This document shows positions 5,537 to 31,261 of a stretch of DNA of 64,000 nt, piece by piece; within the stretch, counting starts at the first letter, position 1, and each line of letters starts with the position of its first letter. The stretch is from an uncultured Candidatus Saccharibacteria bacterium (lineage in GTDB: Bacteria > Patescibacteriota > Minisyncoccia > Phycocordibacterales > PALSA-1337), in contig CAZHHB010000001.1 of assembly GCA_964532285.1 (NCBI GenBank), forward strand, positions 77,916 through 141,915. The letters are read 5' to 3'. Both the position numbers and the translations under genes were made by a program. Below the pieces are notes generated by a model. It ran no database searches and had not been told where the DNA came from. It saw nothing but the letters and a program-made list of their open reading frames with translations.

Positions 5537-5549
5537 GGCTTTATTGTAA

Positions 5550-9327: not shown

Positions 9328-9337
9328 AATAATCGTA

Positions 9338-12759: not shown

Positions 12760-12823
12760 ACACCCATCATACTCACGAAAGATAAATTCCTGATAAAAAA
12801 GAGATAAATTCCTGATAAAATTC

Positions 12824-13906: not shown

Positions 13907-14117
13907 AACAGATATAGTCTCACCGCAAGTCAATCGTGTTGGTCATCCAGGTGTTTTTTGTAGTTCACCTTGTAATTATATGGCTCTATATAGCCCTAAA
14001 ATATAAATAGCCTACAAGGCTATGCTCTTAGAGTAGCAGGTGACATTTTATTGTCAATGAAAGCTATACACAGCTTATTAACTTGCTATTAAGTCAACAA
14101 ATGTGGCGCAATTGCAT

Positions 14118-14146: not shown

Positions 14147-14159
14147 CTAAACTACCGTG

Positions 14160-16094
14160 ATGACCACCTTAAATGAAGCGCAGGAAAGGGCAGTAACGAC
14201 CACCGATGGACCGGTTTTGATTGTAGCTGGGGCGGGAGCAGGTAAAACGAGAGTTATCACGCACAGAATATTGAATTTAATCAAAAAGGGTGCTGAACCG
14301 CGTTCCATATTGGCGATAACATTCACCAACAAATCCGCCAAGGAAATGCGGGATAGGGTTTCAGCCTTGCTGACTGATGATAAAGGCCTCAATCTGCCTA
14401 TTTCCATGACAAGCAGACCGTTCGTAAGCACATTCCATGCTTTGGGTGTCCACATTATACGAGAAAATGCTGGACTCTTGGGACTGACACGACATTTCAC
14501 AATATACGATCGTTCAGATTCGAAAAAAGTCATCAAAGAGTCAATGATCCAGTCGTCAGTTGATCCGAAGAAGTTTGAACCTGGAACTGTGTTGAACATG
14601 ATCTCAAGAGCCAAGGGTGAGGGATTTGGCAGGCTAGAATACGCAGATCATGCCAAAGACTTTACCGAGGAGATGGTGGCTGGTATTTGGGAGAAGTATG
14701 AGGCGATATTGGCAAAAGAAAAAGCTCTTGATTTCGATGATTTGCTCTTGAAAACTGCTCAACTCCTGGGAAGGAATGAGGCTGTGCGAAAACATTATAG
14801 TTCCACATGGAAATACATCCATGTCGATGAATACCAAGATACAAATCGTGTTCAATATCAGATAGTAAAATACTTGGCAGAGGAACATCGGAATATCTGC
14901 GTCGTGGGAGATGCTGATCAAAACATATACAGCTGGAGAGGAGCTACTATAGAAAACATATTGAATTTTGAGAAGGATTATCCAGAAGCTACTGTTATCA
15001 CACTAGAAAAAAACTACAGATCAACAAAAACCATACTTGCGGCGGCGAATAATGTCATAGAAAAGAATCGTATGCGCAAAAAGAAAACTTTGTATACAGA
15101 CAATGATCATGGAGATAAAATTTCACTCTTGGTTTCGTATACCGATGCAGATGAAGCGCGTATGATAGCAGACACGGCTCGCGAAATAATCGAAAAGGGG
15201 ACTTCTCCCAGAGAAATTGCCATCTTGTATAGAACAAATTTCCAATCTCGTATCTTGGAAGAGGCATTTATCAAGAAAAATATCCCTTACCAGATGCTCG
15301 GTACGCGTTTCTTTGAAAGAAAAGAAGTGAAGGATGTTTTGTCGTACATTCGAGCGGCTTTGAACAGAGATTCCATGGCAGATATAGGCAGAATCATCAA
15401 TGTGCCGACGCGTGGCATAGGCAAAGCGACGATTGCGAAGGTTATGTCTGGGGCAGAGGCGTCATTGCCGCCAGCAATGAAATTAAAAATCTCTAATTTC
15501 TGGAAACTGCTTGATGATATAAGTAAAGAAATCTTGGAAAAGAAACCTTCAGAGTCAGTAAGATTCGTCATCCGAGAAACGGGTATTGAGAAACAATTAC
15601 TAGAAGGGGACAGTGAGGATGAAGAGAGGCTGTTAAATATTCGTGAACTAGTTTCTGTGGCAACACAATACGATCACCTGAAGCCAGAAGAAGGCATTGA
15701 ATCCCTACTAGCGAATGCAGCTCTGGCGACAGATCAGGATGATTTACAGAAAAATGAAGACGCTGTGAAACTGATGACGGTTCACGCATCGAAAGGACTT
15801 GAGTTTGAATATGTTTTTATCGCTGGATTGGAACAGGAACTATTTCCATTCAAACATCTGGATGAAGAAAATATAAACGAAGGCGAAGAGGAGGAGGAAC
15901 GCCGTTTGTTCTATGTGGCTTTGACTAGAGCGAAAAAGAAAGTATATTTAAGTTACGCTATCATTCGTACGATATATGGGGCTCAAAAAGTCAGTGCTCC
16001 GTCGGAATTCATTGAGGACATAGAAAAGAGGTTGATAGAGGATCATGTTCCAGAGAAGCCAAGTGGTGCAAAAGCGTTATTTATTGATTTTTAA
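14160..16094 (+). CDS. pcrA: UvrD/PcrA/Rep-family ATP-dependent DNA helicase
   Basis: Walker A GAGAGKT, the DEYQDTN motif and helicase motifs III-VI. Confidence 0.85.
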   Translation: MTTLNEAQERAVTTTDGPVLIVAGAGAGKTRVITHRILNLIKKGAEPRSILAITFTNKSAKEMRDRVSALLTDDKGLNLPISMTSRPFVSTFHALGVHIIRENAGLLGLTRHFTIYDRSDSKKVIKESMIQSSVDPKKFEPGTVLNMISRAKGEGFGRLEYADHAKDFTEEMVAGIWEKYEAILAKEKALDFDDLLLKTAQLLGRNEAVRKHYSSTWKYIHVDEYQDTNRVQYQIVKYLAEEHRNICVVGDADQNIYSWRGATIENILNFEKDYPEATVITLEKNYRSTKTILAAANNVIEKNRMRKKKTLYTDNDHGDKISLLVSYTDADEARMIADTAREIIEKGTSPREIAILYRTNFQSRILEEAFIKKNIPYQMLGTRFFERKEVKDVLSYIRAALNRDSMADIGRIINVPTRGIGKATIAKVMSGAEASLPPAMKLKISNFWKLLDDISKEILEKKPSESVRFVIRETGIEKQLLEGDSEDEERLLNIRELVSVATQYDHLKPEEGIESLLANAALATDQDDLQKNEDAVKLMTVHASKGLEFEYVFIAGLEQELFPFKHLDEENINEGEEEEERRLFYVALTRAKKKVYLSYAIIRTIYGAQKVSAPSEFIEDIEKRLIEDHVPEKPSGAKALFIDF

Positions 16095-16158
16095 CCCTAC
16101 TGCGCTCAGACAGTCCTCGGCTTTCAAAAATAAATACTCAACCGAACAAAATAACATA

Positions 16159-16935
16159 ATGAAACTGCAACCGAAAAAATCGTTAGGACAACACTTCTTA
16201 AATTCCAAACATGTACTTGATCAGATTATTTCGGCTGGAGAGATCAAGAGTGGTGAAAGTGTGTTGGAAATAGGCCCTGGTACGGGTATTTTGACAACTG
16301 CATTATTGGAAGCGGGCGCAAAAGTCATTGCTGTAGAAAAAGATAGACTGGCATGTGAATTACTAAAGAGTAAGTTTTCAAGACAAATTGCCGACAAACA
16401 ACTTGAACTGATTGAGGGAGATATTCTAGATGAAAAAACTTTCAACTCTTACGCACTAATCGCCAATATCCCTTATTACATCACCGGCGCTATCTTAGAA
16501 AAATTCCTAGAGTATGAACCTCGACCCAACCGTATGGTTTTATTGGTACAAAAAGAGGTTGCGGACCGCATCGTGGCTTTGAATGGGAAGGAAAGTGTTC
16601 TGTCCATATCTGTAAAAGCTTTTGGTACGCCGAAAATAATCGCCAAAGTACCACCAGGAGCATTTACACCACCACCAACAGTTGATTCAGCGATACTTTC
16701 AATCAAAAACATCAACGACAATCATTTTGTAAATAAATTAACCGGCAAAAAGGCTGATGTATCTGAGTTTTTCAAAATAGTCAAAGCGGGATTCGCCCAT
16801 AAGCGTAAATACCTGATCCGTAATCTTGAGTCTGTAATCGCGCCAGAGAAACTCTCACAAATCTGGCAAGAAAATAAGTTTGATCCGAAGATTAGGGCTG
16901 AAGATCTCAAGTTAGAACAATGGTTTTGTTTTTGA
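16159..16935 (+). CDS. rsmA: 16S rRNA (adenine1518/1519-N6)-dimethyltransferase
   Basis: Contains KSLGQHFL, the GPG.G.LT SAM motif and NIPY. The start is trimmed to the ATG at 16159. Ends with a TGA stop. Confidence 0.85.
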   Translation: MKLQPKKSLGQHFLNSKHVLDQIISAGEIKSGESVLEIGPGTGILTTALLEAGAKVIAVEKDRLACELLKSKFSRQIADKQLELIEGDILDEKTFNSYALIANIPYYITGAILEKFLEYEPRPNRMVLLVQKEVADRIVALNGKESVLSISVKAFGTPKIIAKVPPGAFTPPPTVDSAILSIKNINDNHFVNKLTGKKADVSEFFKIVKAGFAHKRKYLIRNLESVIAPEKLSQIWQENKFDPKIRAEDLKLEQWFCF

Positions 16936-16940
16936 GCCCA

Positions 16941-17096
16941 GCAAATATGTTTTTGTGACAGTCTGCGGTACTCGCTCCGTGAAATTGCTAGGTAAAAGGC
17001 TCAGGAATTGTAAACAATTCCAACGACATTCGCCTTTTACCAAGCAATTTCCACTGCGCTCAGACATGTCCTCGACTGTCACAAAAACATATTTGC
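16941..17096. repeat. structured repeat element, copy 1: 23-bp perfect outer inverted repeat around a 111-bp conserved core
   Basis: The outer arms gcaaatatgtttttgtgacagtc and gactgtcacaaaaacatatttgc are exact reverse complements. The core at 16964-17074 matches 37530-37640 at 110 of 111 positions. The core folds as a long stem (gaaattgctaggtaaaaggc / gccttttaccaagcaatttc) around the hairpin ggaattgtaaacaattcc. Confidence 0.7.
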
Positions 17097-17106
17097 CGAG
17101 CTATAA

Positions 17107-17451
17107 CTAAATACTAGAACCGTGATATAGGATAGGGAATCCTTCGCCCATGAAAACATAGGCAAGCATGCAGGGTGTCGGCACATAAGAAGCCATGCCA
17201 ATAAGCCACTGCTGTGGATGTGGAACTATATGCATGAGGTAAGGAAGATTGCCCCAATTCCACATAAGAGTAATTGGTCCCCTCATTGGTTGATATACAT
17301 AGAGTAAAAGGCCATTATTGCACGGTTGTATAGACATTACTCGTCCTCCGAAGGGCATACCTATGCCTTGGGCATTCAATAGTAATGGCATGGAGATAAT
17401 GAGCAGAAAAACAATACAAAATAAATAGAGTCCGTGATGATTTTGATTCAT
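17107..17451 (-). CDS. small secreted hypothetical protein
   Basis: N-terminal signal peptide. No recognisable family. Confidence 0.3.
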   Translation of the reverse strand: MNQNHHGLYLFCIVFLLIISMPLLLNAQGIGMPFGGRVMSIQPCNNGLLLYVYQPMRGPITLMWNWGNLPYLMHIVPHPQQWLIGMASYVPTPCMLAYVFMGEGFPILYHGSSI

Positions 17452-17522: not shown

Positions 17523-18389
17523 ATGGCGTTCTTCTACCAACGCATAGGAACTGTGGCTATTTTCATAGTATGTTTAATTGCCATTGGAGCCACTGCTTAT
17601 TACAGGCATGGCAATATTACCGTGTCACATGTGTCATTTGAGAATGTTTCAGCAGTCAGTGTAGCAACAACAGATTCAACTGTTTCATCCAGCGACAATG
17701 AAAACTGGAAAAACCAATTTATAGATAGTTCTACTGATTCAACTTTCGTAAAACCCAAGACATCCGCAACTGTAGCAACAAAAGAAGAACCTCTCACAGC
17801 AACCGACATGCTTGGCAGGGAATTCATGACGAAGTATATGCTTATGCAACAGGCGGGTATTGCCAATGACCAAAAATCCATAAATGATGCGGCTAACACC
17901 CTCATCCAGGAAAGCGTATCAAATATCCAACCGCCGAAAACTTTCATTTTGGAAAATATAAATGTTGTAACAAGCAACGATCTCCGAAGCCTGCGAGTTT
18001 ACGCCGAATCACTGACTGGAGTAATAAAAACTTATATTCCCAATACAGACAACAACGAAGTCGTTATTGCGGTGAATGCTCTCGATAAGAACGATATGAG
18101 CATGCTCGCACGCATAGACCCTGTCATTGCAAATTACAGAACCGCTCTAAAAGTTCTCGTATCCATGCCCGTGCCGAGTCCCTTATCGCAACACCATTTG
18201 AATCTACTGAATGGTGTGAATATTGCTCTATTCAACGCTATTTCCTTTAGGGAACTGGACAAAGACCCATTCAAGGGGATGGCGGCGGTAAGTATGGAAG
18301 TCTCAGCACTGACACTTATGGACAACGCTATGAGGTCTATCGAAAATTATCTGAACTTGTCCGGAGTACCTTTCCAATATTCATCATAA
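17523..18389 (+). CDS. membrane-anchored hypothetical protein (first gene of the T4SS-like operon)
   Basis: N-terminal TM helix. Its stop codon overlaps the next start (ATAATG). Confidence 0.4.
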   Translation: MAFFYQRIGTVAIFIVCLIAIGATAYYRHGNITVSHVSFENVSAVSVATTDSTVSSSDNENWKNQFIDSSTDSTFVKPKTSATVATKEEPLTATDMLGREFMTKYMLMQQAGIANDQKSINDAANTLIQESVSNIQPPKTFILENINVVTSNDLRSLRVYAESLTGVIKTYIPNTDNNEVVIAVNALDKNDMSMLARIDPVIANYRTALKVLVSMPVPSPLSQHHLNLLNGVNIALFNAISFRELDKDPFKGMAAVSMEVSALTLMDNAMRSIENYLNLSGVPFQYSS

Positions 18390-20011
18390 TGTTAAATATA
18401 AGCAATAAAAAAATAAGGGTTGTCTGTATGTCCTTGATATTTGCGGTTGTATTTTCCGCCACTGGATTGACATCACTCATTCTCACGCCGAAAACAGCCA
18501 ATGCAGTGGTGGAAAACGCAACATCTGTACCGGTGGGAGGTTTTAGTCTAACGATGGATTATCTGAAAAATTTCAAATTGGATCGCCTGGCAACTATGAT
18601 TGCAAAACAACTCCTACATCAGATGACTATAAGTGTTGTTACATGGATAAACAGCGGCTTCAATGGCAGTCCGGCATTCCTCACCAATCCTCAAGCCTTT
18701 TTCCTAGATTCTGCAGATCAAGTCACCGGTGAATTCTTGGCATCAGGAGGATTGAGTAGTCTATGTTCTCCATTTAGTTTGAATGTCCGTCTCTCTCTGG
18801 CTCTAAGTCAGACATCACTCATGAGTCAGAGGTATCGATGTACTCTGGGTGGTATCGTGGCAAATGCCAATGGGACGATCAATGGTTTCGTATCGGGAGA
18901 TTTCTCTCAAGGAGGATGGCCGGCATTCATCTCTATGACCACCGAACCACAAAACAATCCGTACGGAGCTTTCTTGTATGCACAGTCTGATCTAAATGCC
19001 AGGATATCTGCTAGACACAATGCCATCACTGCTGATTTGCAACTCGGCAAAGGTTTCATGTCGTGGCAGAGTTGTAAAGATGTGACCTCTATCATGGAGG
19101 GTGGGGGGCAAGACATGGGAGATGTTAGTGACACGGCTGGTGGTTCTACCGTAAAGAAAGTCATCGATCCAAAAACCAAAGCGGTGACTTATCAATCATG
19201 TGAAGTATCTACTCCTGGATCTGTGATCGCTGGAACATTGCAGAAAAATCTGGATGTACCGGTGGTGGAGTTGGAATTGGCAAATAGTATAAATGCTGTG
19301 GTAGATGCTTTGATCTCACAGATGCTAAGTCAAATGTTATCCGGAGGTTTAGGTGGTCTAAGTAGTGCTACGGGCGGTCGTGCTTCGTTCACGAACAATC
19401 TACAGCTCGAGCAGACGAAAATATACCAAGAAGAAATAGACAATGCCCAACTACAGACATCAGCCTCGCTTGGACAGATTCTTGGTTCAGTAGATGAATA
19501 CAGAAATACTTACAAACAAGCCGCCTCAGCGGTAAATGCAAGCAAGACCAGACTCCAAACGGCTAGGGCATGTTTCTCAAACAAACTGGCTGCGTCCGAT
19601 GCTTCTAGTAATCCAATAGAGAAACTTAATCCAATCCAGATCGCCAATGGTAGAAATGCGATGTCATCCATAGAAAGCTATATATCTATGAATATAGATC
19701 CTCTATTAGCTAGTTTATCGTCAAAACAAGCGGGGGCAGAGCGTGATATCAGCAGGATCAATGGTCTTCAGGATTTAAACTCCACTCACCTGTATTCATC
19801 AAATGACATTCAAGCCCAATCTATCGCCTATCAAAATGCCATCCAGTCTGCGGCGGAAATCGACCTACAAGTTCAAGAAAAGATTCAAATCGCAAAACAA
19901 GATGTAGCGAATACGACAAACAAGGTCGCAGAATTCAATACCGCAGCAGACCAGTATCAGAGAGACTGCGAAATGTTCACCTATACATCTGGATCGTGGC
20001 AGGGTATTTAA
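18389..20011 (+). CDS. secreted hypothetical protein with a C-terminal coiled coil (T4SS-like operon)
   Basis: Signal peptide, 540 aa, translationally coupled to the flanking genes. Confidence 0.4.
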   Translation: MLNISNKKIRVVCMSLIFAVVFSATGLTSLILTPKTANAVVENATSVPVGGFSLTMDYLKNFKLDRLATMIAKQLLHQMTISVVTWINSGFNGSPAFLTNPQAFFLDSADQVTGEFLASGGLSSLCSPFSLNVRLSLALSQTSLMSQRYRCTLGGIVANANGTINGFVSGDFSQGGWPAFISMTTEPQNNPYGAFLYAQSDLNARISARHNAITADLQLGKGFMSWQSCKDVTSIMEGGGQDMGDVSDTAGGSTVKKVIDPKTKAVTYQSCEVSTPGSVIAGTLQKNLDVPVVELELANSINAVVDALISQMLSQMLSGGLGGLSSATGGRASFTNNLQLEQTKIYQEEIDNAQLQTSASLGQILGSVDEYRNTYKQAASAVNASKTRLQTARACFSNKLAASDASSNPIEKLNPIQIANGRNAMSSIESYISMNIDPLLASLSSKQAGAERDISRINGLQDLNSTHLYSSNDIQAQSIAYQNAIQSAAEIDLQVQEKIQIAKQDVANTTNKVAEFNTAADQYQRDCEMFTYTSGSWQGI

Positions 20012-20017
20012 AACATA

Positions 20018-21895
20018 ATGAGACGATATATCAAACACATTCCAATGATATCACTGCTAATCCTCATCGGATTGGTATTATTCGCACATCCGGCGTTGGC
20101 ACAGAAAGTTCCAGGTGCGGGGAATGATACTGGGTGGGTTGGAGCTCTCTTCGGATTCGATACGGCGTGGGATTTCCTGTCTTACGGGGTGGCATGGATA
20201 GTCAATCTGTGGCTGACGGTAGCCTCATGGTTTGTGGCTCTGACTGGTATTTTACTGAATGTCTCTATCAACATAACTCTGCATATCAAAGATTTCGTAG
20301 ACAGTACACCGGCAATATATGATGTCTGGAGAGCATTACGTGATATCTCCGGTATATTCATAATATTTGCCTTACTCTGGGCGGCCATCCAACTCATCCT
20401 TGGGATAACCAAGCCGAACTTTGGAGGCCTGATAAAAAATATCGTCATCGCTGGAGTACTGATAAATTTCAGTTTCTTCGTAACGGGGATTCTAATAGAT
20501 GCCTCAAATGTTGTATCGCTCACTATCTACAATGCCATATTGCCAAATGCCGCCGCACAATATAACGGCAATACCACAAAGCTTGTTGAGGAATCTTCAA
20601 CTAGTAACAGGGCAAATATTTCCGATATATTCATGGGTTCACTGAAACTTCAGAAGAGCTTTGATACGAAGAACTTAAATATGGGGCAAGCGGCAGGTGG
20701 CGTAAGTGCTCCATTCAAAATAATCCTTTCAGGTTTAACGGGCGTCATCATTATGATTACTGCCGGCTTGAGTTTCTTATTTGCTTCACTGGCTTTCATT
20801 GTGCGACTTGTGCTTCTGCTGGGAATCTTGGCTTTTTCACCTCTATGGTGCGTGGCGTATGTAGTTCCTCAGCTGAGCAAATATAGCACCAAGCTCGCAG
20901 ACACTTTCAAAGGTCAGCTTATGTTCATGCCAGCATATCTGCTCCTCATGTATATTGCCTTGAAGATACTTGATGGTACAAAAGTCTTCAGTAGTCCTGC
21001 TACGGGCAATCTGTGGCAAGGCGCACAAACTACTGGTGTACCAACGGAGTTTATAACTTTCGCCATCAACGCTGCTTTCGTAATCATTATGCTGAATATT
21101 CCATTACTCGCGGCATTAGAGTTGATGGGGAATACTGCATTATGGAAGGGTGTCGGGGCTGGGGCGATATGGAAGGGTGTTGGAAATTGGACAAAGGACC
21201 GCGCATGGAGAGAAACTGGTGGCAGAGCGGCTAGTAAGGTTGCTACGAGCGAGAAATTCAAGGATCTCGCGAGCCGTTATAAGGTCGCAGAATTTGCATT
21301 GAAAGAGACTAGGGGTGTAGCGAAGGGTTATGATGAGAAGTTAGATAAACAGGTTAAATCAAAGACGGAATTCTCTGAATCTCTTGGTCATGATCAGAGA
21401 GCGATGAATGCGGCACAAGCTAGACTAAGGACAGCACAAAGTAACCTAGCTTCCGCAAAAGCTGCTGGTGCTGCGCCAGGTGTCATAACTAATCTCGAAA
21501 ATCAAGTTGGTGCAGCGAAGGGGGGTATAACTACTGTTGAGAATGCACGGAAGCAGTCTTATGCGACAAGAATTGGTACGCGTGGGATTACTGATGTTGA
21601 TACATTGTGGCTGAAGGTAGCTCGTAAGAACAAAGTAGCAGCAGCCAAAGTTCAGATACCTATTCTAGAAAAGCAAATTACTCAAAGAAAGGAAAGTCTA
21701 AAGGAAACAAGAGACGATATTAAACAGCTTACGAATGCTATCAGAAATAATCCTGCTGGAGCTGGGGTGGCTGCCGGAGCACCAACAGCTGCTCAAGCTA
21801 CGCAATTAGCTCAACTCCAAAGAGATGAGGTTAATAAACTTAATACCATTAATGGTCTTGAAGCAAGCATTGACACTCTTAAACTCATAAAATAA
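20018..21895 (+). CDS. TrbL/VirB6-like polytopic membrane protein with a C-terminal coiled-coil tail
   Basis: N-terminal signal/TM segment, at least six hydrophobic helices with the spacing seen in TrbL/VirB6, and an Ala/Gln-rich coiled-coil C-terminus. Confidence 0.5.
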   Translation: MRRYIKHIPMISLLILIGLVLFAHPALAQKVPGAGNDTGWVGALFGFDTAWDFLSYGVAWIVNLWLTVASWFVALTGILLNVSINITLHIKDFVDSTPAIYDVWRALRDISGIFIIFALLWAAIQLILGITKPNFGGLIKNIVIAGVLINFSFFVTGILIDASNVVSLTIYNAILPNAAAQYNGNTTKLVEESSTSNRANISDIFMGSLKLQKSFDTKNLNMGQAAGGVSAPFKIILSGLTGVIIMITAGLSFLFASLAFIVRLVLLLGILAFSPLWCVAYVVPQLSKYSTKLADTFKGQLMFMPAYLLLMYIALKILDGTKVFSSPATGNLWQGAQTTGVPTEFITFAINAAFVIIMLNIPLLAALELMGNTALWKGVGAGAIWKGVGNWTKDRAWRETGGRAASKVATSEKFKDLASRYKVAEFALKETRGVAKGYDEKLDKQVKSKTEFSESLGHDQRAMNAAQARLRTAQSNLASAKAAGAAPGVITNLENQVGAAKGGITTVENARKQSYATRIGTRGITDVDTLWLKVARKNKVAAAKVQIPILEKQITQRKESLKETRDDIKQLTNAIRNNPAGAGVAAGAPTAAQATQLAQLQRDEVNKLNTINGLEASIDTLKLIK

Positions 21896-22830
21896 TGAAC
21901 CACGACTACAACATACTTGAAGAAAAATTTAAACAACTACCTGAAGATATTCAGATAGCTTTAACTTCCACGGAGATATCTAAAGAGATAAAAAACATCG
22001 CCGACAAGAATAACCTTCTCCTAGACCAAGCCGCCATATTATTTGATCTTACAAGTTATGTAATGTTGGGGCTTGTACCTTCAAAAGAATTCGCGAGCAC
22101 TCTCTCCAAAGAAGCAAACATTGATATGGGAAAAGCTATCGCTGTCACCCAAGAAATCAACACTCAAGTTTTCGCCAAGATCCGATCTTCAATGCAAAAC
22201 CTTCAAAGTACTCGTGAAAATGTAGAAACTGAAACGGCGATACCAAATTCATCACCTATCCCAGAAAAGATGCGACCTTCTTCTGGAATAACCCAACAAC
22301 CAACACCACGACCAGTATCTACACCCTGGACACAGAAGCCGACACAGGGACCAGTGCAACCAGATCATTCAGACCTAGAGAAAGCGGGAGATTTCACGAT
22401 TGTATCGAGTGGAGATAATTTCTCTGTACCTCCACCCACACAACAAAGACAAACATTTACACCTGCACCGAAGCCATACATCCCAACGAATCCTTCTATT
22501 ACACCGAAGCCCGCTTACACACCAATACAAACACCGATTGTTCCGAAACCAATAATTCAGACGCCAAAGATGCAACCAACACCTCAAAGTGTACCGCAAC
22601 CATTCGTTCCAAAAACACCAGACGCAACAACCACAACACCAATTAAACCAGAAACAAAGACGGAACCGTTGGCAGATCATTTACTCAACAGTTTCAAGCC
22701 AGTCATACCGAATATTCCACAAAACAAACCCACACAGAACGTTCCGCCGCAAAATATTCCAACCGGTACACCAACACCGAATGTGCCTCCGAAACCACGA
22801 GGACCTGATATGTATAGAGAAATGGTATAA
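21895..22830 (+). CDS. Pro/Thr-rich hypothetical protein
   Basis: Low-complexity PT/PK-rich C-terminal half. The start overlaps the upstream stop. Confidence 0.35.
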   Translation: MNHDYNILEEKFKQLPEDIQIALTSTEISKEIKNIADKNNLLLDQAAILFDLTSYVMLGLVPSKEFASTLSKEANIDMGKAIAVTQEINTQVFAKIRSSMQNLQSTRENVETETAIPNSSPIPEKMRPSSGITQQPTPRPVSTPWTQKPTQGPVQPDHSDLEKAGDFTIVSSGDNFSVPPPTQQRQTFTPAPKPYIPTNPSITPKPAYTPIQTPIVPKPIIQTPKMQPTPQSVPQPFVPKTPDATTTTPIKPETKTEPLADHLLNSFKPVIPNIPQNKPTQNVPPQNIPTGTPTPNVPPKPRGPDMYREMV

Positions 22831-22839
22831 TAACAACAA

Positions 22840-23274
22840 ATGCGATTCCAAGTTCCCCAATTTATAGAGGTAGAGGATAAGATTTTCGGACCAATCTCCT
22901 TGAAGCAATTCATCTATCTCGCTGGCGGGGGAGGACTGTCATTCTTGGTATATCTTTTCCTAGGCAACTTATTCTTCGCAGCCATACCGATCGCTATCAT
23001 CATGGCCATATCTCTAGCTCTGGCTTTCTACAAACTCAACGGCAAACCATTCATCAGTGTTATGGAGTCGGCCTTCAAATATTACCTCGGCAACAAACTC
23101 TATATTTGGAAGAAGCAGGAGAAAACTCCGCCGAAAGATGTTCAAACAGCCGTCAAAGATGTCAAAAATTACGCCTCCATCATGGTTCCGAAAATATCTG
23201 ATAGCAAACTGAAAGATCTGACATGGAGTTTGGATATAAAGGAGAGTGTTTATTCCAACAAGAATCAAAGGTAG
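22840..23274 (+). CDS. PrgI-family (VirB3-like) small membrane protein
   Basis: The N-terminus MRFQVPQFIEVEDKIFGPISLKQFIYLAGGG with two TM helices matches the PrgI family. It lies directly upstream of the VirB4 homologue. Confidence 0.55.
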   Translation: MRFQVPQFIEVEDKIFGPISLKQFIYLAGGGGLSFLVYLFLGNLFFAAIPIAIIMAISLALAFYKLNGKPFISVMESAFKYYLGNKLYIWKKQEKTPPKDVQTAVKDVKNYASIMVPKISDSKLKDLTWSLDIKESVYSNKNQR

Positions 23275-23282
23275 AAAATAAT

Positions 23283-23930
23283 ATGGCCACAACAGCACCA
23301 CAAAAAACAACTCAGGATTTCGTTCCCATCCAAGAAATACGCGATGGGGTAATAATCCTGAAAAATGGAGGAATGCGAGGTATTTTGTTGGCCTCATCAT
23401 TGAATTTTGCCTTGAAATCAGAAAATGAACAGGGTTCTATCCTGATGCAATTCCAAAATTTCTTGAATTCACTAGACTTCTCCATTCAGATCTTCATCCA
23501 ATCAAAAAAGCTAGATATTAGACCGTATACTGCACTTTTGGAAGACCGCTACAGAGAACAACAGAGTGAACTTATGAAGATACAAGTTCGCGAATACATA
23601 GAATTCATAAAGACTTTCGTAGAAAGCACGAACATAATGTCAAAAAGTTTCTTCGTGGTCATACCTTATGATCCCGCTATTCTGAGTGCCGGCAAAAATC
23701 CATTAAACAAGATGTTCCCTGGAAAAAATAAAGGAAAGACCGATACTGAAACCAACGAAAACCAATTCCAAGAATACCGAAGTCAGTTGGAACAACGTAT
23801 GGCGGTAGTAGAACAAGGCCTCGTCCGCTGTGGTATACGCGCCGCTGAGTTGGGAACTGAGGAGGTGGTAGAATTGTATTACAAACTGTTTAATCCTGGG
23901 GAGACGGAGAAGCCGATACAGATAACATAA
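23283..23930 (+). CDS. VirB4/TraC N-terminal-domain-like protein (possible split VirB4)
   Basis: 216 aa immediately upstream of the VirB4 ATPase gene, separated by 1 nt and in a different frame. The two proteins together total about 820 aa, the size of an intact VirB4. Confidence 0.35.
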   Translation: MATTAPQKTTQDFVPIQEIRDGVIILKNGGMRGILLASSLNFALKSENEQGSILMQFQNFLNSLDFSIQIFIQSKKLDIRPYTALLEDRYREQQSELMKIQVREYIEFIKTFVESTNIMSKSFFVVIPYDPAILSAGKNPLNKMFPGKNKGKTDTETNENQFQEYRSQLEQRMAVVEQGLVRCGIRAAELGTEEVVELYYKLFNPGETEKPIQIT

Positions 23931-23931
23931 T

Positions 23932-25746
23932 ATGTCATTCATTTCAAAAATATTCGGTAAAAAAGAACCAGACCAAATAGTTTCCATCCTGCCCGAGGAA
24001 ATCTATCAGGCTGGTGTTTTGGAATTGAAAGATATCATTGCGCCATCGGCTCTCAAGATAAGCCCAAAGGAATTAAATCTGGGAGAAAAAGTTGGTCGTA
24101 CATTCTTCGTAATATCGTATCCGCGCTTCCTAGATGAAAGCTGGTTCGCACCTATCATCAATCTAGACAAAGTATTCAATGTTTCCATATTCATCCATCC
24201 TGTTGATACAGCCAAGATCTTGAAACATTTCCAAAAGAAAGTCGCTGAAGTCCAAAGCCAGATCTCCAGGAGGGAAGAGAAAGGATTGGTGCGCGAACCC
24301 TCACTAGATACGGCCTACCAAGACCTAGAACAGCTTCGCGATCAGCTCATGCAAGCCCAGGAACATCTATTTGATGTTGGTGTATACATCACACTGTTCG
24401 CTGATTCTGATGGCGAACTAGACAAACTGGAGTCAGAGATCAAATCCATCCTTGAGTCAAAACTTGTCTATGTCAAACCAGCTTTATTCCAACAAGAACA
24501 AGGCTTCAAGAGTGTTATCCCGATAGGTGACGACCAGCTCGCCGTCCATTCCAAACTCAATTCTTCACCGCTTTCTTCATTATTCCCATTTGTATCTTTT
24601 GATCTGACATCAGACAAAGGTATTTTGTATGGGATCAACAGACACAACTCTTCTCTAGTTCTGTTTGACCGTTTCTTGTTGGAAAATTACAATTCCGTGA
24701 CATTTGCTGTAGCTGGAGCTGGTAAATCATACTGCACCAAGCTGGAAATATTGCGTACATTGATGTTTGATACTGATGTTATCGTCATTGATCCAGAGAA
24801 AGAATACGAGTACATGGCAGAAGCCACGGGCGGCAAATACTTCAATATATCCCTGAACTCTGAACATCATATCAACCCATTTGATCTACCTATACCACGC
24901 GAAGATGAGTCTGCCAGTGACGTTTTGCGCTCCAATATCATCAATCTTGTTGGATTATTCCGCATCATGTTGGGTGGCTTGAGTCAGGAGGAAGATGCCA
25001 TCATAGATCGCGCCATCACCGAAACTTACGCCTTGAAAGATATCACTCCGGAATCTGATTTTCGTAATGTTGAACCACCACTATTGTCAGACTTTGAATT
25101 GGTCTTGGCTGGCATGGAAGGAGCAGACTCTCTGGTTCAGAGACTTTCCAAATATACCAAGGGCACCTGGGCTGGTTTCATCAACCGTCCATCAAATGTA
25201 GATATAAATAAAAAGTTCGTAGTCTTCTCTCTGCGCGATATGGAAGATGAATTGAAGCCGGTAGCTATGTATATCGTCACTCACTATATATGGAATGCTA
25301 TCCGCAAAAATCTCAAGAAGCGTTTGTTGGTCATTGATGAGGCTTGGTGGATGATGAAATCAGAAGATACGGCTTCATTCTTGTTCAGCCTGGCAAAACG
25401 CGGCCGCAAATACTTCCTTGGACTGGCGACGATCACTCAAGATGTGGATGACTTCTTGAAATCACCTTATGGTCTGCCAATACTTACGAACTCCTCTATT
25501 CAGATTCTGTTGAAACAATCGCCGACAATCATAGACCATATCCAGCAAACATTTAATCTAACAGATGAAGAAAAGTATTTGCTTCTAGAGTCAGATGTAG
25601 GAGAGGGTATGTTCTTCGTAGGACTCAAACATGTGGCCATAAAGATAGTGGCTTCATATACCGAAGACCAAATTATCACCACCAATCCTGCCCAGGTTAT
25701 GCAGATCGCTCAAGCAAAGAAGGATTTGGAAGCAGCGGGCGGGTAA
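23932..25746 (+). CDS. VirB4/TrbE/CagE-family conjugal-transfer-type ATPase
   Basis: Walker A AVAGAGKSY, Walker B LLVIDEAW and the C-terminal RKY..G....TQ motif. Confidence 0.75.
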   Translation: MSFISKIFGKKEPDQIVSILPEEIYQAGVLELKDIIAPSALKISPKELNLGEKVGRTFFVISYPRFLDESWFAPIINLDKVFNVSIFIHPVDTAKILKHFQKKVAEVQSQISRREEKGLVREPSLDTAYQDLEQLRDQLMQAQEHLFDVGVYITLFADSDGELDKLESEIKSILESKLVYVKPALFQQEQGFKSVIPIGDDQLAVHSKLNSSPLSSLFPFVSFDLTSDKGILYGINRHNSSLVLFDRFLLENYNSVTFAVAGAGKSYCTKLEILRTLMFDTDVIVIDPEKEYEYMAEATGGKYFNISLNSEHHINPFDLPIPREDESASDVLRSNIINLVGLFRIMLGGLSQEEDAIIDRAITETYALKDITPESDFRNVEPPLLSDFELVLAGMEGADSLVQRLSKYTKGTWAGFINRPSNVDINKKFVVFSLRDMEDELKPVAMYIVTHYIWNAIRKNLKKRLLVIDEAWWMMKSEDTASFLFSLAKRGRKYFLGLATITQDVDDFLKSPYGLPILTNSSIQILLKQSPTIIDHIQQTFNLTDEEKYLLLESDVGEGMFFVGLKHVAIKIVASYTEDQIITTNPAQVMQIAQAKKDLEAAGG

Positions 25747-25765
25747 AAAGTGCTACAATTTACTC

Positions 25766-26266
25766 ATGGCATCAAAAGGGAATAAAGGAAAAGGAATCAA
25801 ATGGAAATTACTATATGCAATTACCGGCATAATTGACGCTATTCAGTTAATCATTGATTTTACTGGTGTAGGTATACTAATAAGCGAGATTCTAGAAATT
25901 ATCATGCCTTTTGTGCTTATTGGATATCTAAAAATAATCTGCAGGGTTTCTATGATCACCAAACCCATAAGACTTCTGTCTATAGTGGGAGCCACGGGAC
26001 TGGATGCTGTGACCGGTGGAGCCGCTCCTTTTTGGGTATTGGACGTCTGGTATATACATAATGATGTAAAGAAAGAAGACGCCGAATATAATGCCGCCAT
26101 ACAACAAGAAATGATGGTGAAAGAAGTATCCGACAGTATGAATCAAGATGGTGTCAGAACCCCATCTCAAACAGCAAAACCTTTGAATAGTGGGGGAGTT
26201 CGAGCGCCAACTTTCAATTCCAAACCACCTAGGACTAACCCCAGGATTACATCCGTGTTAAAATAA
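25766..26266 (+). CDS. small membrane protein, hypothetical
   Basis: Two or three TM helices. No family recognised. Confidence 0.3.
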   Translation: MASKGNKGKGIKWKLLYAITGIIDAIQLIIDFTGVGILISEILEIIMPFVLIGYLKIICRVSMITKPIRLLSIVGATGLDAVTGGAAPFWVLDVWYIHNDVKKEDAEYNAAIQQEMMVKEVSDSMNQDGVRTPSQTAKPLNSGGVRAPTFNSKPPRTNPRITSVLK

Positions 26267-26270
26267 ACCC

Positions 26271-27386
26271 ATGTCTCGCTCTCACAAACTATTAAATACT
26301 AGCTGTAAATCATTGTGGGGCATAGGCATCTTCGTCTTGGCCCTTACTTTCAACTTTCAATCCTTCGAGTCTAAAGGACTCTCAGGACCTGAACGGCTTT
26401 TAACTTTTAACTCTGTTCGCGCCCAAGGCATCCCCGTTTCGATAGGCGGTTTGGAGCTTTCTGCCTCAACTGACAACCCCGTACCAGGACAAAAAGTTAC
26501 GATTACGGCAAAAAGTTATAGTACAAACATCAACTCTGCCAAGATCTCCTGGACTGTTGCTGGCAAAAGCGTACTTTCGGGAACAGGAGCGACAAAATTG
26601 GAAGTAACAGCTCCTGCTCTTGGCAAGAGATTGACCGTGAATGCTTCCGCAATAACAGCAGAGGGTAGAACCTTAAATAGCTCTATTGCTATAAATTCTG
26701 GTTCTGTAGATATGATAATAGAATCTGATGGTTATGTCCCGACATCTTTCAGGGGTAAACTGAGTCCTGTCTACCAAAATCTCGTAACCATAACAGCGAT
26801 ACCGCATTTGGCGAATTCTTCGGGTGTGGAATATGATCCGAAGACCCTCGTGTATAACTGGAAGAAAAATAGCCAAGTCATCCAGGATCAAAGCGGATAT
26901 GGTAAGCAATCTATCACTTTGGCAGGGGATATTGTTCCGAGAGCATACACGCTGACTGTTACAGTAGGAACTCGCGATGGCAGTGCACAAGCGGTAGGTA
27001 TGGCTTCGGTTTCATTTAATGAACCTTCAATATCTTTCTATGTAGATGATCCACTGTATGGTCCGCTTTTCAATAGAACTATACTGGATTCTCTCCGCAT
27101 TGGTTCCAAAAACGAGACGAGTGTTCTCATGGTTCCGTTTGGCTACAACAAACCGTTTGATAGTATCGGCAGTTTGTCATTGTTATGGAAGATAAACGGT
27201 GTGGAACATGCAGAATTAGCAGAAAATGAATCAATTGTTCTCCGTGCACCAGAAGGATCTGCTGGGGCTTCGGCTATAGAGTTGGAGATTAGAAATTTGA
27301 GAGACATATTGCAAGGGGGTAGCAATGGGTTCAACGCCATATTCAGTGCCAACAGTTCATCCTCAACAGATTCAGTAACCTTTTAA
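26271..27386 (+). CDS. secreted hypothetical protein
   Basis: Signal peptide and a repetitive beta-rich composition. Confidence 0.35.
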   Translation: MSRSHKLLNTSCKSLWGIGIFVLALTFNFQSFESKGLSGPERLLTFNSVRAQGIPVSIGGLELSASTDNPVPGQKVTITAKSYSTNINSAKISWTVAGKSVLSGTGATKLEVTAPALGKRLTVNASAITAEGRTLNSSIAINSGSVDMIIESDGYVPTSFRGKLSPVYQNLVTITAIPHLANSSGVEYDPKTLVYNWKKNSQVIQDQSGYGKQSITLAGDIVPRAYTLTVTVGTRDGSAQAVGMASVSFNEPSISFYVDDPLYGPLFNRTILDSLRIGSKNETSVLMVPFGYNKPFDSIGSLSLLWKINGVEHAELAENESIVLRAPEGSAGASAIELEIRNLRDILQGGSNGFNAIFSANSSSSTDSVTF

Positions 27387-27391
27387 ATCAT

Positions 27392-28678
27392 ATGAAAAAT
27401 ATATTTTCAAAATCAGTTAGTAAATACGGCCTTTTATTTGTCTTCACGTTCGCAACCGTTACTGGTTCCGTCGCTGTGCCGACTATTACAAAGGCTGATT
27501 GGACAGATGTAACCGTTAAGACCAACTACACACTACTAGAGCCACTGCCTTGTATTCAGGGTAAAGAGGGGGCTTCTAGCACTATCCCTTGTACACCAGG
27601 ACAACAAGTAAAGCAGGTTAATTTCAAGGATTATGTTCAGTATGTATTCAATCTAATTATAGCCTTGGCGGCAGTCGCAGCGGTCTTTGTTATGGTGTAC
27701 GGCGGTTTTGAGTATATGACATCTCTATCTGCTTCAGGCAAAAGTGAGGGTCTCACCAGAGCCAAAAATGCCATCATGGGGCTTGTATTAGTCTTGGCAT
27801 CATTCCTCATCTTGCGAACAATAGATCCTAGGTTGGTTGAGATACCGAGTACTTTCCTGCCGCAGTTGCAATTGAAATGTCCGGATAATAAGGATTGGAA
27901 ATTATCCGACCCGAGATGCAAGTCGAATACACTATCATTGTTTGATAAATTAAGCAGAGATGCGGATGCCTATAATATTGAAATCAGGGATGTTAGGAGC
28001 AAGGTAGATCAAATAAATGCAGAGGTCAAAACACTAGAACAACAAAGAAAGACGGTGCAAGATAGAATTACTTCTTACGCTGGAGGTAACAGAACAGCCG
28101 ACGAACTCTGTCAGTATACATCTGGGGGACAATCTACCGGTGATTCTGAAATTGACGCTATGTGTCTGCAATTATTGAGCCTAGATGATCGTATAGCTAC
28201 TGGTCAAAACGAAAGCAACACCACAGCAGCCATTGGTCTGATAGAAAAAATCCTAGCAAGAAATATTTACGACTTACGTATTATAGATGGAACAATACCG
28301 TCTAGTTCTCTCGGAAATGTTCAACTTTCTTATAAGACTGGCTTTGAAACAGAAATTGCACAAGATTTATTGAATATAGATTCTCGTAGGAATGATTATA
28401 AAACACTTGTCGCAAATGATAGTGTAGCAAGCCAAAAGATCGATAACGAGGCCGACTATGCCAAGGCTTATCTGGAAATACAAAGGGAGTTATATCGTCT
28501 ATATTCTGGTAAATGGCAACAAACTATTGAATATGCATCGACAGCCAAGACAAGGGCTCAAGACAAAATCCAAGAGATAGCAAACAGATATGCACCACTT
28601 ATCAAAGATGCGGACTTACAGAAAAAATTGACTGAAAGACGTGATACAGCAAAAGAGGCGGTAAGGATCTACAAATAA
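27392..28678 (+). CDS. VirB2/TrbC-like pilin module fused to a ~280-aa coiled-coil domain
   Basis: Signal peptide, then the pilin-like block YVFNLIIALAAVAAVFVMVYGGFEYM-(polar loop)-KNAIMGLVLVLASFLIL, which is helix-GG-loop-helix. Confidence 0.35.
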   Translation: MKNIFSKSVSKYGLLFVFTFATVTGSVAVPTITKADWTDVTVKTNYTLLEPLPCIQGKEGASSTIPCTPGQQVKQVNFKDYVQYVFNLIIALAAVAAVFVMVYGGFEYMTSLSASGKSEGLTRAKNAIMGLVLVLASFLILRTIDPRLVEIPSTFLPQLQLKCPDNKDWKLSDPRCKSNTLSLFDKLSRDADAYNIEIRDVRSKVDQINAEVKTLEQQRKTVQDRITSYAGGNRTADELCQYTSGGQSTGDSEIDAMCLQLLSLDDRIATGQNESNTTAAIGLIEKILARNIYDLRIIDGTIPSSSLGNVQLSYKTGFETEIAQDLLNIDSRRNDYKTLVANDSVASQKIDNEADYAKAYLEIQRELYRLYSGKWQQTIEYASTAKTRAQDKIQEIANRYAPLIKDADLQKKLTERRDTAKEAVRIYK

Positions 28679-28679
28679 A

Positions 28680-29957
28680 ATGAAAAAAGTCTTCATCACA
28701 TTATCAATAATCTTCATCGTCGCTCTGGCTGTATTCGCTTACTGGTATTTCTCCATGAGCGGAAATTCTGGTCAGAGGACAACTTATGGTACCCCTACCC
28801 AAAATAACACCTTCGTACCACTGAACAGGCCGGGTACGACGAATACCGGCAGTACAGGAGGAGGAAACGCCACCACGAACACACCTTCAAACAATAATAC
28901 TGCCACACTGACACCAAATCAGAAAGCCAAAATACCTACATTGAGGCTTATCAGCAATTCTCCCGTCGGAGGCTACGGTGCCAGTACTACGGCCAGTACT
29001 ACCATCGTGCGTTGGGTTGATAGGGGGAGGGGCAATGTATTTCAAACTAGCGGAATTACTGAGGAAATAGACACCCTCTCAAACACCATCCTGCCTCGAG
29101 TATATGAAAGTTCCTGGAACAAAAACCTGACTGCTTTTATTGGGTCCGTATTTCAAGAGAATGGTCTGCCGAGTACGCTGTATGCGGAGATGAAAGCCCA
29201 GGCTTCTACCACATCAGCAACACCATTCATACTCAAAGGTAAAAACTTGCCAGAAAATATCATTGGCTATGCCACTTCACCCAAAAAAGACAAGCTATTC
29301 TATATGATAAGGGATAATGGAAGCGGGGTAGGCTATATCTCTACTTTTGAAGGCAAGTCTGTCAAAGAAATATTCAATACACCCCTCACACAAGTAAATG
29401 TTGACTGGCCGGAAGAAAACACTATCGCCATCACAACGAAGGGGACAGCCAGCCAAGGGGGCTATCTTTACTTCGTCAAACCAAACACAGGGGTTTGGAG
29501 CAAGATTGCTGGTCCTATCCAAGGGATAAGTGCTCGTGTCAGTCACGATGCCAAATACGCCATCATTTCCTCAACAAACAACGATACCAGGGAAATTTCT
29601 ACAAACATATACAATGTTAATAAATTAAACATGGGAGATGCTATGGTTCGTACCATTGCCGATAAGTGTACATGGGGTAATTTCTACAAAGAGATGGTCT
29701 ACTGCGGAGTACCCACCAAGAATATTTCCGGCACATATCCGGATGATTGGTACAAAGGGAATGTCTCATTCATAGACAAGGTGTGGCAGATCAATGCGGC
29801 CACCAGTGAAGTCCATCTGATATCCTCCATTCTAGACCAGTCTGACCGTGTTATAGACGCTTTCAACCTAGGTCTAGATCCCAGAGATACATATCTATTC
29901 TTCATGAACAAAAACGACCTATCGCTATGGTCGCTAGATCTAGTTTCTACACAGTAA
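28680..29957 (+). CDS. secreted or membrane-anchored hypothetical protein (last gene of the operon)
   Basis: N-terminal TM segment, an N/T/G-rich linker and a beta-rich C-terminal domain. Confidence 0.35.
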   Translation: MKKVFITLSIIFIVALAVFAYWYFSMSGNSGQRTTYGTPTQNNTFVPLNRPGTTNTGSTGGGNATTNTPSNNNTATLTPNQKAKIPTLRLISNSPVGGYGASTTASTTIVRWVDRGRGNVFQTSGITEEIDTLSNTILPRVYESSWNKNLTAFIGSVFQENGLPSTLYAEMKAQASTTSATPFILKGKNLPENIIGYATSPKKDKLFYMIRDNGSGVGYISTFEGKSVKEIFNTPLTQVNVDWPEENTIAITTKGTASQGGYLYFVKPNTGVWSKIAGPIQGISARVSHDAKYAIISSTNNDTREISTNIYNVNKLNMGDAMVRTIADKCTWGNFYKEMVYCGVPTKNISGTYPDDWYKGNVSFIDKVWQINAATSEVHLISSILDQSDRVIDAFNLGLDPRDTYLFFMNKNDLSLWSLDLVSTQ

Positions 29958-29985
29958 CTATTAATGTGACGGATTGCGCAGGCAG

Positions 29986-30125
29986 CGCCCAGCAAATTAT
30001 TTTGGGCGCAGCTGCGTGTTAGTCTTCCGAGTTATTGGTTGGCGAGCCATAGTCTGCCTCAGAGAAGCATAGACTGACGCACCCATCGCATACTCGCCGT
30101 CGCCCAAAATAATTTGCTGGGTGCC
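29986..30125. terminator. long inverted repeat (~25-bp arms, ~90-nt spacer) between convergent genes
   Basis: gcgcccagcaaattattttgggcgc pairs with cgcccaaaataatttgctgggtgc. It lies between the end of the T4SS-like operon and yidC. Confidence 0.45.
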
Positions 30126-30135
30126 GCCTGCATCA

Positions 30136-30894
30136 CTACACCTTACCTTTCAGATACTTTTCTCCAACATACAACTCCTGTCCTAGAGTAAACAGGGAAC
30201 TAACTGACCAATAAATGGCGATGATGGCTGCCGCTTGAGGGAAGCTTGCTGGAATAATCCAATAGACAGAGACGAAGGCAATAATAGGCAAGAAATACTT
30301 CATCTGTGTATTCATTGAATTTGATAGCTGTGATGCCATATCCAGTCTCCCATCAGCCCCGATCACATTTGCAGGTGCCTTCTTGTGCTGTCTCGCCGCT
30401 ACAGAATACTTCATCTGGAAAAACTGTATAGCCGCAGTGATAAGTGCCAAAATCAAGCTTTTACTAGTCAAATCCAGACCCAATAGTGTAGGTGCTGTTA
30501 TAGGAACATGGATAAAACTGTAAAGTAATTCTGGTTGTACAGTTGGAATGATCTTGTAAAACACAGAGATAAGGGCGAAGAGGATAGGTAATTGTATGAT
30601 AAGAAGCAGGATGCCAGAAAATGGCTTGATGTTGCGAGTCTTGTAAAGTTCCATGATCTTCGCTGCCTGCACCTGCTTGTCACTAGAGTATTGAGCTTTT
30701 ACTTTTGCCACTTCTGGCTCTATTTCTTTCATCTTTACCTGAGTCAATAGAGCTTTCTTTGATAGTGGAAACAAAATTAGACGAATGATAATTGTGAAGA
30801 TAATCACAGCAATACCGACATCTATACCTGGAATAAGATCCATTATACCTACAAGACCGTTGTATAGTGGGAGAAATATGAATTTGTTGTACAT
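30136..30894 (-). CDS. yidC: membrane protein insertase YidC (short form)
   Basis: 252 aa with five TM helices. Motifs include LSKKA..TQ..M..I.PE and a ...Y conserved region. Confidence 0.8.
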   Translation of the reverse strand: MYNKFIFLPLYNGLVGIMDLIPGIDVGIAVIIFTIIIRLILFPLSKKALLTQVKMKEIEPEVAKVKAQYSSDKQVQAAKIMELYKTRNIKPFSGILLLIIQLPILFALISVFYKIIPTVQPELLYSFIHVPITAPTLLGLDLTSKSLILALITAAIQFFQMKYSVAARQHKKAPANVIGADGRLDMASQLSNSMNTQMKYFLPIIAFVSVYWIIPASFPQAAAIIAIYWSVSSLFTLGQELYVGEKYLKGKV

Positions 30895-30904: not shown

Positions 30905-31261
30905 CTACTTTAAAATGCCAGCTTTTACAAAGACATCCTTCAATTCTTTTGAGAGAACACTTGAATCTGAATCAATCGCAGTGTTTTTTGCAAAGACAAT
31001 CACATGATAGCCCCCCGAAATAACAGGGTAGAGATGTCTAACGGCTCCGTACATCCTCCTACGCAACCTGTTGCGTCCTACCGCGGTCTTTGAGACCTTC
31101 TTGGGAACAGCTGTGGCAATTTTGGTTATTCCTTCAACTCGCAAGCTTCTCAAGAGAAAAAAGGAAGAGCTTGTTATTCTTCCTTTTTCCACAACGGAAT
31201 TGAATTCGTTAACGGAGAGTCTCCGTGATTTCGAAAGCATATTATACGGCAACACGGGCAC
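30905..31261 (-). CDS. rnpA: ribonuclease P protein component
   Basis: Basic protein carrying the RNR motif (VGRNRLRRR). It sits in the conserved rpmH-rnpA-yidC arrangement. Confidence 0.75.

Follow-up and report, generated by a model that had tools for sequence, protein, structure and literature searches.

A large part of bacterial diversity belongs to the Patescibacteria. A survey of 3,035 Patescibacteria genomes (Quinonero-Coronel et al. 2025, Microb Genom, PMC12102498) describes a monophyletic Patescibacteria clade of VirB4 ATPases nested in the MPF-FATA type, with TrsD as the most frequent partner. The same paper places PrgI/VirB3, VirB6 and VirB2-like PF18895 pilins near virB4, reports almost no relaxases, and gives the Paceibacteria neighbourhood as dnaA, dnaN, rnpA, ksgA and rpmH. 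Transposon sequencing (Tn-seq) found a homologous cluster of Southlakia epibionticum to be essential for epibiotic growth (Wang et al. 2023, Cell, PMC10633639), and a FEMS review presents the Patescibacteria systems as a new type of type IV secretion system (T4SS; PMC12857230, 2025). Here we analyse an operon at positions 17523-29957 (+) of a 64,000-nt stretch of contig CAZHHB010000001.1 (assembly GCA_964532285.1), hereafter the window. With a probability of roughly 90%, we read it as the Paceibacteria (Parcubacteria) form of the Patescibacteria-type chromosomal T4SS, a vertically inherited 11-gene system beside oriC that derives from monoderm conjugation machinery and is no longer conjugative.

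The operon consists of 11 co-directional, tightly packed open reading frames (ORFs), listed here with their transmembrane (TM) segments where these define the protein:

17523-18389 (+), g1: bitopic protein with a TM segment at about residues 8-26, a Ser/Thr-rich linker and a domain of about 200 aa (TM scan)
18389-20011 (+), g2: secreted protein with a conserved Cys-containing N-terminal domain and a C-terminal three-helix bundle
20018-21895 (+), g3: VirB6/TrbL-like polytopic membrane protein ("extended VirB6") with a C-terminal helical extension of about 240 aa
21895-22830 (+), g4: protein with no TM segment, a helical N-terminal domain of about 100 aa and a long Pro/Thr/Gln-rich tail
22840-23274 (+), PrgI: PrgI/VirB3-like small protein with two TM segments (Pfam PF12666 and TM scan)
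23283-23930 (+), TrsD: free-standing N-terminal VirB4-like domain (NCBIfam TrsD/TraD)
23932-25746 (+), VirB4: monoderm-type ATPase (MPF-FATA, CD1110-like) that lacks the first domain
25766-26266 (+), g8: small polytopic membrane protein without a signal peptide (hydrophobic segments at 15-59)
26271-27386 (+), g9: exported beta-rich protein with a signal sequence
27392-28678 (+), g10: VirB2-like T4SS pilin module with a helical C-terminal extension of about 280 aa
28680-29957 (+), g11: bitopic protein with a TM segment at residues 4-22, a Ser/Thr/Asn-rich linker and an ectodomain

The original prediction, made from the sequence alone, had counted twelve genes here with overlaps of 0-10 nt. There is no room for a twelfth ORF within these limits, and the junctions from g1 to g11 (-1, 6, -1, 9, 8, 1, 19, 4, 5 and 1 nt) extend from a 1-nt overlap to a 19-nt gap. 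A scan of the operon for internal promoters and terminators yielded no convincing pattern, with fewer sites than in shuffled sequence, and was uninformative.

For comparison, one genome per species was scanned for relatives of the VirB4 protein. At least 593 were found, and the best 80 species-level loci among them form the comparison set used throughout. All 80 are metagenome-assembled genomes; those with informative titles are all Patescibacteria, mostly Paceibacterota, Parcubacteria, Taylorbacteria and Zambryskibacteria, and some are named only as "bacterium". We assign the window itself to a patescibacterium of the Paceibacteria (Parcubacteria) class.

The VirB4 ATPase matches the NCBIfam model conju_CD1110 (E = 2.4e-112; 376.6 bits against a cut-off of 325) at profile positions 179-733 of 752, as well as Pfam P-loop_TraG (E = 1e-25). 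Its Walker A motif (GAGKS, residue 262) and Walker B motif (VIDEAW, residue 467) are both kept in 80 of 80 orthologues. The best solved relative is the C-terminal domain of Thermoanaerobacter VirB4 (PDB 4ag5, 3.7e-39), compared with 1e-4 for TrwK; this and the CD1110 score place the protein in the monoderm MPF-FATA lineage. The start of the profile, which the ATPase does not cover, is matched by the preceding ORF, whose stop codon lies 1 nt ahead of the virB4 start. This ORF belongs with the TrsD/TraD family (NCBIfam, E = 3e-7) and, in several models of full-length VirB4, matches the N-terminal 100-230 positions (E = 7e-12 to 1e-3), the best being VirB4_plasma at positions 100-233 (E = 7e-12), with CD1110 matched at positions 1-119. 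Precomputed annotation assigns it to PF26593 (TraC-like), and a search against PDB sequences returned no match. It is a separate gene in all 80 loci, where it is 202-272 aa long as called (about 210-220 aa in nearly all) and 56-90% identical to the TrsD of the window. The split of VirB4 is real and not a frameshift.

PrgI matches PF12666 well above the curated cut-off (E = 2.6e-11; 44.4 bits against 27), carries two hydrophobic TM segments and was found in 80 of 80 loci at 45-86% identity. The g3 product is polytopic and has the features expected of a VirB6 fold. The original prediction had already recognised the PrgI/VirB3-like and TrbL/VirB6-like proteins and a VirB4 N-terminal domain ending 1 nt before the ATPase, and all three assignments stand.

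The pilin, g10, had been described as a fusion of a pilin to a long coiled coil. The pilin half finds support. Its core (residues ~40-150) comprises a signal peptide, a YTLLxPLP motif and two TM helices ending in TI(N/D)P, a topology that fits a VirB2/TrbC-type pilin. Residues 84-142 match PF18895 (T4SS_pilin) with E = 1.3e-5 and 25.6 bits against a cut-off of 26.6, and the same model matches all 28 of the g10 orthologues, the best at 2e-9. The long C-terminal tail is atypical of such pilins. It contains two Pro in 254 residues, has little Pro or Gly but many charged residues and leucines, with E, K, Q, R, D, L and A making up 55%, and gives weak matches to coiled-coil families. It can safely be called a helical extension; a coiled coil is plausible from the composition and the weak family matches. 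Fourier analysis of heptad periodicity had no power as a coiled-coil test and was discarded; it failed also on helices of g2 that AlphaFold predicts confidently. Across the g10 alignment the pilin core is conserved and the tail is variable, from 0 to 300 aa. More than 100 long relatives of 300-580 aa exist, some of them named "pilin", and in distant relatives the tail is missing, short or different in kind.

In some pilin orthologues the helical tail is replaced by a C-terminal domain of another kind, in which "GGTEYWLH", "VVDL" and "HWHV" motifs are conserved. These orthologues lie in three of the related loci:

L049, 13214-14104: pilin orthologue with the alternative C-terminal domain
L058, 12286-13131: pilin orthologue with the alternative C-terminal domain
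L071, 13224-14141: pilin orthologue with the alternative C-terminal domain

By its motifs this domain looks like a metal-binding enzyme domain. An identity as a zinc peptidase was considered and dropped, as neither the Pfam nor the PDB sequence search supported it.

The remaining six proteins (g1, g2, g4, g8, g9 and g11) have no convincing match in Pfam, NCBIfam or PDB sequences. For g1, searches with Pfam, NCBIfam and PDB profiles were all negative; an orthologue stands at the equivalent position in 40 loci, at 22-41% identity. The g2 protein has a signal-like N-terminus, 648 relatives (all unnamed) and six invariant cysteines (Cys126, 151, 229, 271, 395 and 527). AlphaFold models its N-terminal domain poorly and predicts three helices (residues 334-405, 415-465 and 471-528) with a block-mean predicted local distance difference test (pLDDT) score mostly above 90, falling to 77-84 around residues 461-490. 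A Foldseek search with g2 retrieved generic helical bundles only, and comparison of the g1 and g2 profiles with the PDB gave nothing meaningful. A VirB5-like identity for g2, suggested by its three-helix bundle and its place just upstream of the VirB6-like gene, was therefore not retained, given the generic Foldseek matches and the poor model of the N-terminal domain. Conservation of g4 is limited to its N-terminal third (median coverage 0.36). A small ORF equivalent in position to g8 occurs in most of the 25 related loci that were mapped, with D24, G36 and P88 conserved. Weak profile matches of g9, present in 76 loci, to the Ig-like protein Hoc (E = 0.0018) and to antibody domains suggest that it probably consists of Ig-like repeats, and weak matches of g11, present in 60 loci, to the TolB beta-propeller (E = 0.002-0.02) make a beta-propeller its probable ectodomain fold. 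The order of the accessory genes is fixed and their presence near-universal among relatives, and most encode an N-terminal anchor or a signal peptide. Because of this fixed order and near-universal presence, a structural or adhesive role seems to us the better reading than one as effectors. Of the two roles originally proposed, effectors or adhesins, the first is thus disfavoured, and structural envelope or adhesin parts fit better.

The operon is flanked by housekeeping genes:

14157-16094: UvrD/PcrA helicase, upstream flank
16045-16935: KsgA, upstream flank
30136-30894 (-): YidC, downstream flank
30905-31261 (-): RnpA, downstream flank
31511-32857: DnaA, downstream flank
33062-34168: DnaN, downstream flank

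The operon thus lies directly beside the replication origin region. The order uvrD-ksgA-[g1 to g11]-yidC-rnpA-dnaA-dnaN is repeated in almost all loci that extend far enough to reveal it, and the 11 ORFs stand at corresponding positions in most of the 25 mapped loci. Comparison of gene order across relatives, which had been proposed along with the original prediction, thus places the whole 11-gene block at the equivalent site. G+C content is 0.41-0.44 throughout the operon, equal to that of its flanks.

VirB4 is 78-95% identical across the 80 species, and its identity exceeds that of DnaA in all 48 loci where both are found. Median identities to the window proteins are as follows:

VirB4: 82%
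TrsD: 64%
DnaA: 59%
PrgI: 57%
DnaN: 53%
Exported and membrane accessory proteins: 28-38%

On the evidence of these identities VirB4 is under strong purifying selection. The conserved VirB4, the fixed site and the matching G+C content together indicate a vertically inherited, constrained core machine with a fast-evolving surface, and not a mobile element. The pilin tail, g2, g9 and g11 are, from their sequence divergence, candidates for the parts of that surface that determine host specificity. The locus had been described as a host-encoded, non-conjugative apparatus among core genes. That description is upheld by the ksgA-yidC site shared with relatives, the unchanged G+C content, the absence of mobility genes nearby and the agreement of PMC12102498. 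The accompanying word "minimal" undersells a conserved 11-gene machine whose ATPase is more conserved than DnaA.

The identified parts (VirB4, TrsD as its detached N-terminal domain, PrgI as the VirB3-like anchor and the VirB6-like g3) make up a membrane platform, to which a Sec-exported VirB2-like pilin is added. By comparison with T4SSs that have been studied, hexamers of VirB4 with TrsD would dock on PrgI and VirB6, and VirB4 would pull the pilin out of the membrane and, on the VirB6 platform, polymerise it into a pilus or a conduit that crosses the cell wall. Four of the anchored or exported proteins, g1, g2, g9 and g11, would form or decorate the wall-spanning, host-contacting part, and the C-terminal extension of the pilin would be displayed outside. 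The role of such a machine would be contact-dependent exchange with a host cell, by protein export or by import of host macromolecules, and not plasmid transfer. As had been noted originally, no relaxase, VirD4 or other type IV coupling protein (T4CP), VirB11 or VirB9/10 is encoded by any ORF of at least 300 aa in the 64-kb window. Because relaxase and coupling protein are both lacking there, the machine most likely serves an epibiotic lifestyle rather than plasmid transfer.

Several points weigh against this reading. The pilin of the window scores 1 bit under the Pfam cut-off, and its 280-residue tail, unusual for a VirB2-like subunit, could prevent packing of the canonical kind. Six of the 11 operon proteins are without an assigned role, and Pfam, NCBIfam and PDB-profile searches found no VirB8-like or VirB1-like component in the operon. 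T4CP homologues are common elsewhere in Patescibacteria genomes, and the search here covered the 64-kb window, so that a T4CP or a relaxase may be encoded at another place in this genome. Finally, the data on essentiality come from Saccharimonadia, a class other than Paceibacteria. An M23 peptidase with two LysM domains is encoded 3.6 kb upstream of the operon on the other strand (12824-13933, -); it might substitute for the VirB1-type wall hydrolase that the operon lacks.

As to function, we rank contact-dependent exchange first, with import and adhesion alone as live rivals. A bolder form of the same idea holds that the six lineage-specific proteins (g1, g2, g4, g8, g9 and g11) and the pilin with its swappable tail would build a previously unseen wall-spanning host-contact conduit that imports host macromolecules, and that VirB4 would be more constrained than DnaA since the cell cannot live without the machine. 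We offer this tentatively, as a conjecture that may be right but on balance is probably not.

The operon might instead encode a DNA-uptake machine like Helicobacter pylori ComB or archaeal Ced, that is, an import-mode T4SS bringing host or environmental DNA, and with it nucleotides, into a cell unable to make them. ComB likewise has no relaxase or T4CP, the VirB4 of the window weakly matches the archaeal DNA importer CedB (NCBIfam, 1.4e-7; 30.6 bits, far under the cut-off of 700), and the authors of PMC12102498 favour import of DNA or other macromolecules. A comM-like gene lies in the window at 11236-12864, as does the gene for a type IV pilus ATPase, described below. Nothing in the sequence indicates the direction of transport, however, and no DNA-binding component was detected in the operon. 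Competence in Southlakia needs comEC and type IV pili; since a comEC deletion is viable and the T4SS is essential, the essential role of the T4SS there is not ComEC-linked transformation (PMC10633639, PMC12857230). We consider a DNA-uptake machine rather unlikely.

A machine for adhesion only, in which the VirB4/VirB6 platform assembles a filament or an adhesin complex on the surface, by which the cell attaches to its host, and translocates nothing, is a further candidate. It draws on the large, externally displayable pilin tail, which varies in sequence and length between species, on the fast-evolving exported proteins with Ig-like and propeller-like domains typical of adhesins (weak matches), and on the lack of a coupling protein in the window. 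The extreme conservation of VirB4, TrsD and PrgI suggests, on the other hand, a demanding mechanochemical role. Moreover, the window encodes a PilB-type type IV pilus extension ATPase (T2SSE and MshEN domains; 40495-42525, -) near the T4SS, which shows that type IV pili form a system of their own in this genome, and in Saccharibacteria it is the type IV pilus system which mediates attachment (PMC10633639, PMC12857230). A purely adhesive organelle is in our judgement unlikely.

Lastly, the operon could be a conjugative or mobilisable element that has integrated here, or what is left of such an element, with its relaxase and attachment (att) sites just outside. Its parts do descend from monoderm conjugation systems (CD1110-type VirB4, PrgI and TrsD), long inverted repeats flank it, the 11-mer GCCCAGCAAAT occurs at both ends, and a serine recombinase with a tRNA-Lys island lies ~19 kb downstream. 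Among the window ORFs of at least 300 aa, the only recombinases are these:

4604-5578: Xer-like recombinase
48935-50551 (-): serine recombinase

For ~17 kb upstream and ~19 kb downstream of the operon there is no relaxase, T4CP or integrase, and neither oriT, att repeats nor a relaxase flanking the operon was found in the 64-kb window. Presence among relatives is not patchy: the insertion site and gene order are common to dozens of species, divergence tracks that of core genes, and G+C content does not shift. The hairpins at 16935-17102 and 29978-30131, together with the 11-mer, were considered as att sites or element borders and rejected; the hairpins are not att sites because the window has similar ones between genes at four further places, and four occurrences of the 11-mer against 1.3 expected are not significant. 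An integrated conjugative element is effectively excluded.

These long hairpins (~120-170 nt, mostly near-perfect) are all intergenic, at 3639-3808, 16935-17102, 29978-30131, 37501-37670, 39874-40039 and 47209-47329, and two of them share a near-identical core of ~115 nt (16960-17075 and 37527-37645). Their RNA folds reach -78 to -81 kcal/mol (z of -10 and -6), and no Rfam family matches them. They could be repeats resembling miniature inverted-repeat transposable elements or repetitive extragenic palindromes, or bidirectional terminators. The one immediately downstream of the operon is placed as follows:

29978-30131: hairpin between the convergent g11 and yidC, with arms of 31 nt that are 94% complementary and a fold of -81 kcal/mol (z = -6.2)

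From its position and fold it is a probable bidirectional terminator.

On the other side of the operon, the product of a small ORF divergent from g1 (17107-17451, -) has a signal peptide and an "FGGRV...C...YQP" motif. In the closest relatives an extra gene of ~330 aa, located between ksgA and g1, ends in this motif as well:

L002, 2351-3346: extra gene with the FGGRV motif
L005, 2678-3682: extra gene with the FGGRV motif
L008, 2652-3641: extra gene with the FGGRV motif
L015, 2592-3629: extra gene with the FGGRV motif

Neither the small ORF nor the ~330-aa genes belong to a Pfam family, and tblastn between them was not significant. They may represent another lineage-specific gene that accompanies the T4SS.

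Elsewhere in the window, a tRNA-Lys gene (48900-48976) abuts the large serine recombinase. Next comes a low-G+C stretch with genes for a GNAT protein and an AAA_14/DUF4143 ATPase, besides several ORFs that belong to no family; the whole island (48900-58000) is an integrated element unrelated to the T4SS. A LOOT RNA (Rfam RF03000; 98 bits, E = 1e-17) lies within its low-G+C part (~0.34-0.36), downstream of tRNA-Lys, at 52502-52621 (+). A sigma-70-like protein (61117-62628, -) has regions 1.2, 2 and 3, and its C-terminal part, where region 4 is expected, matches the model of the DnaA C-terminal helix-turn-helix (E = 5e-6, under the cut-off). Two further proteins fall in no Pfam family: one of 525 aa with a central TM segment and Ser/Thr-rich linkers (9290-10867, +), and a Gly/Ser/Thr-rich exported protein of 302 aa with C-terminal cysteines (43338-44246, -).

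Set beside known systems, the operon shares with the MPF-FATA conjugative T4SSs (Prg of pCF10, Trs of pGO1 and the CD1110-type system of CTn2) the VirB4 subtype, PrgI and TrsD, and like them has no VirB7/9/10 outer-membrane parts. In those systems, which are carried on plasmids or integrated elements, a relaxase, a T4CP (PcfC/VirD4), VirB1-like hydrolases and VirB8-like proteins are present and a VirB2 pilin is missing, whereas the window shows the reverse on each point. ComB and Ced resemble it in being T4SS-derived and chromosomal, without relaxase or T4CP, and in having VirB2-, VirB3-, VirB4- and VirB6-like parts. ComB differs as a diderm system with VirB7-10, and Ced differs in that its ATPase is matched so weakly.

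The cluster SEML1_0005-0019 of Southlakia epibionticum ML1 (PMC10633639) is closer. By its structure-based annotation it too encodes a VirB6-like protein, PrgI, a TrsD-like protein, VirB4 and PF18895 pilins, lies near the start of the chromosome and has no recognised relaxase or coupling protein, and its exported Ig-like (PEGA) protein SEML1_0005 parallels g9. Where the window has one long-tailed pilin and one VirB6-like protein, Southlakia has six short pilins in tandem and two VirB6-like proteins of very large size; its cluster also includes an NTF2-like (VirB8-like) protein and a lysozyme/peptidase gene, and the operon of the window holds neither a hydrolase nor an NTF2-like gene.

The Patescibacteria-clade T4SS of PMC12102498 differs in nothing essential. 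Both have VirB4 with a separate TrsD adjacent to it, PrgI/VirB3, VirB6 and a VirB2-like PF18895 pilin nearby, no relaxase, and a chromosomal site by dnaA, dnaN, rnpA and ksgA; in the window no ORF of at least 300 aa encodes a T4CP. The system is thus one already described between 2023 and 2025, and no new kind. No T4SS before that of Patescibacteria had been shown to be indispensable to the growth of the cell that carries it, and the window offers a clean Paceibacteria example of it, in which a fixed 11-gene architecture sets parts under extreme constraint (VirB4, TrsD and PrgI) against fast-evolving ones. What goes beyond the accessible text of that survey is also where the residual interest lies: the fixed order of 11 genes with its six unassigned conserved proteins, the unusually strong conservation of VirB4, which exceeds that of DnaA, and the long, variable tail on a single pilin.

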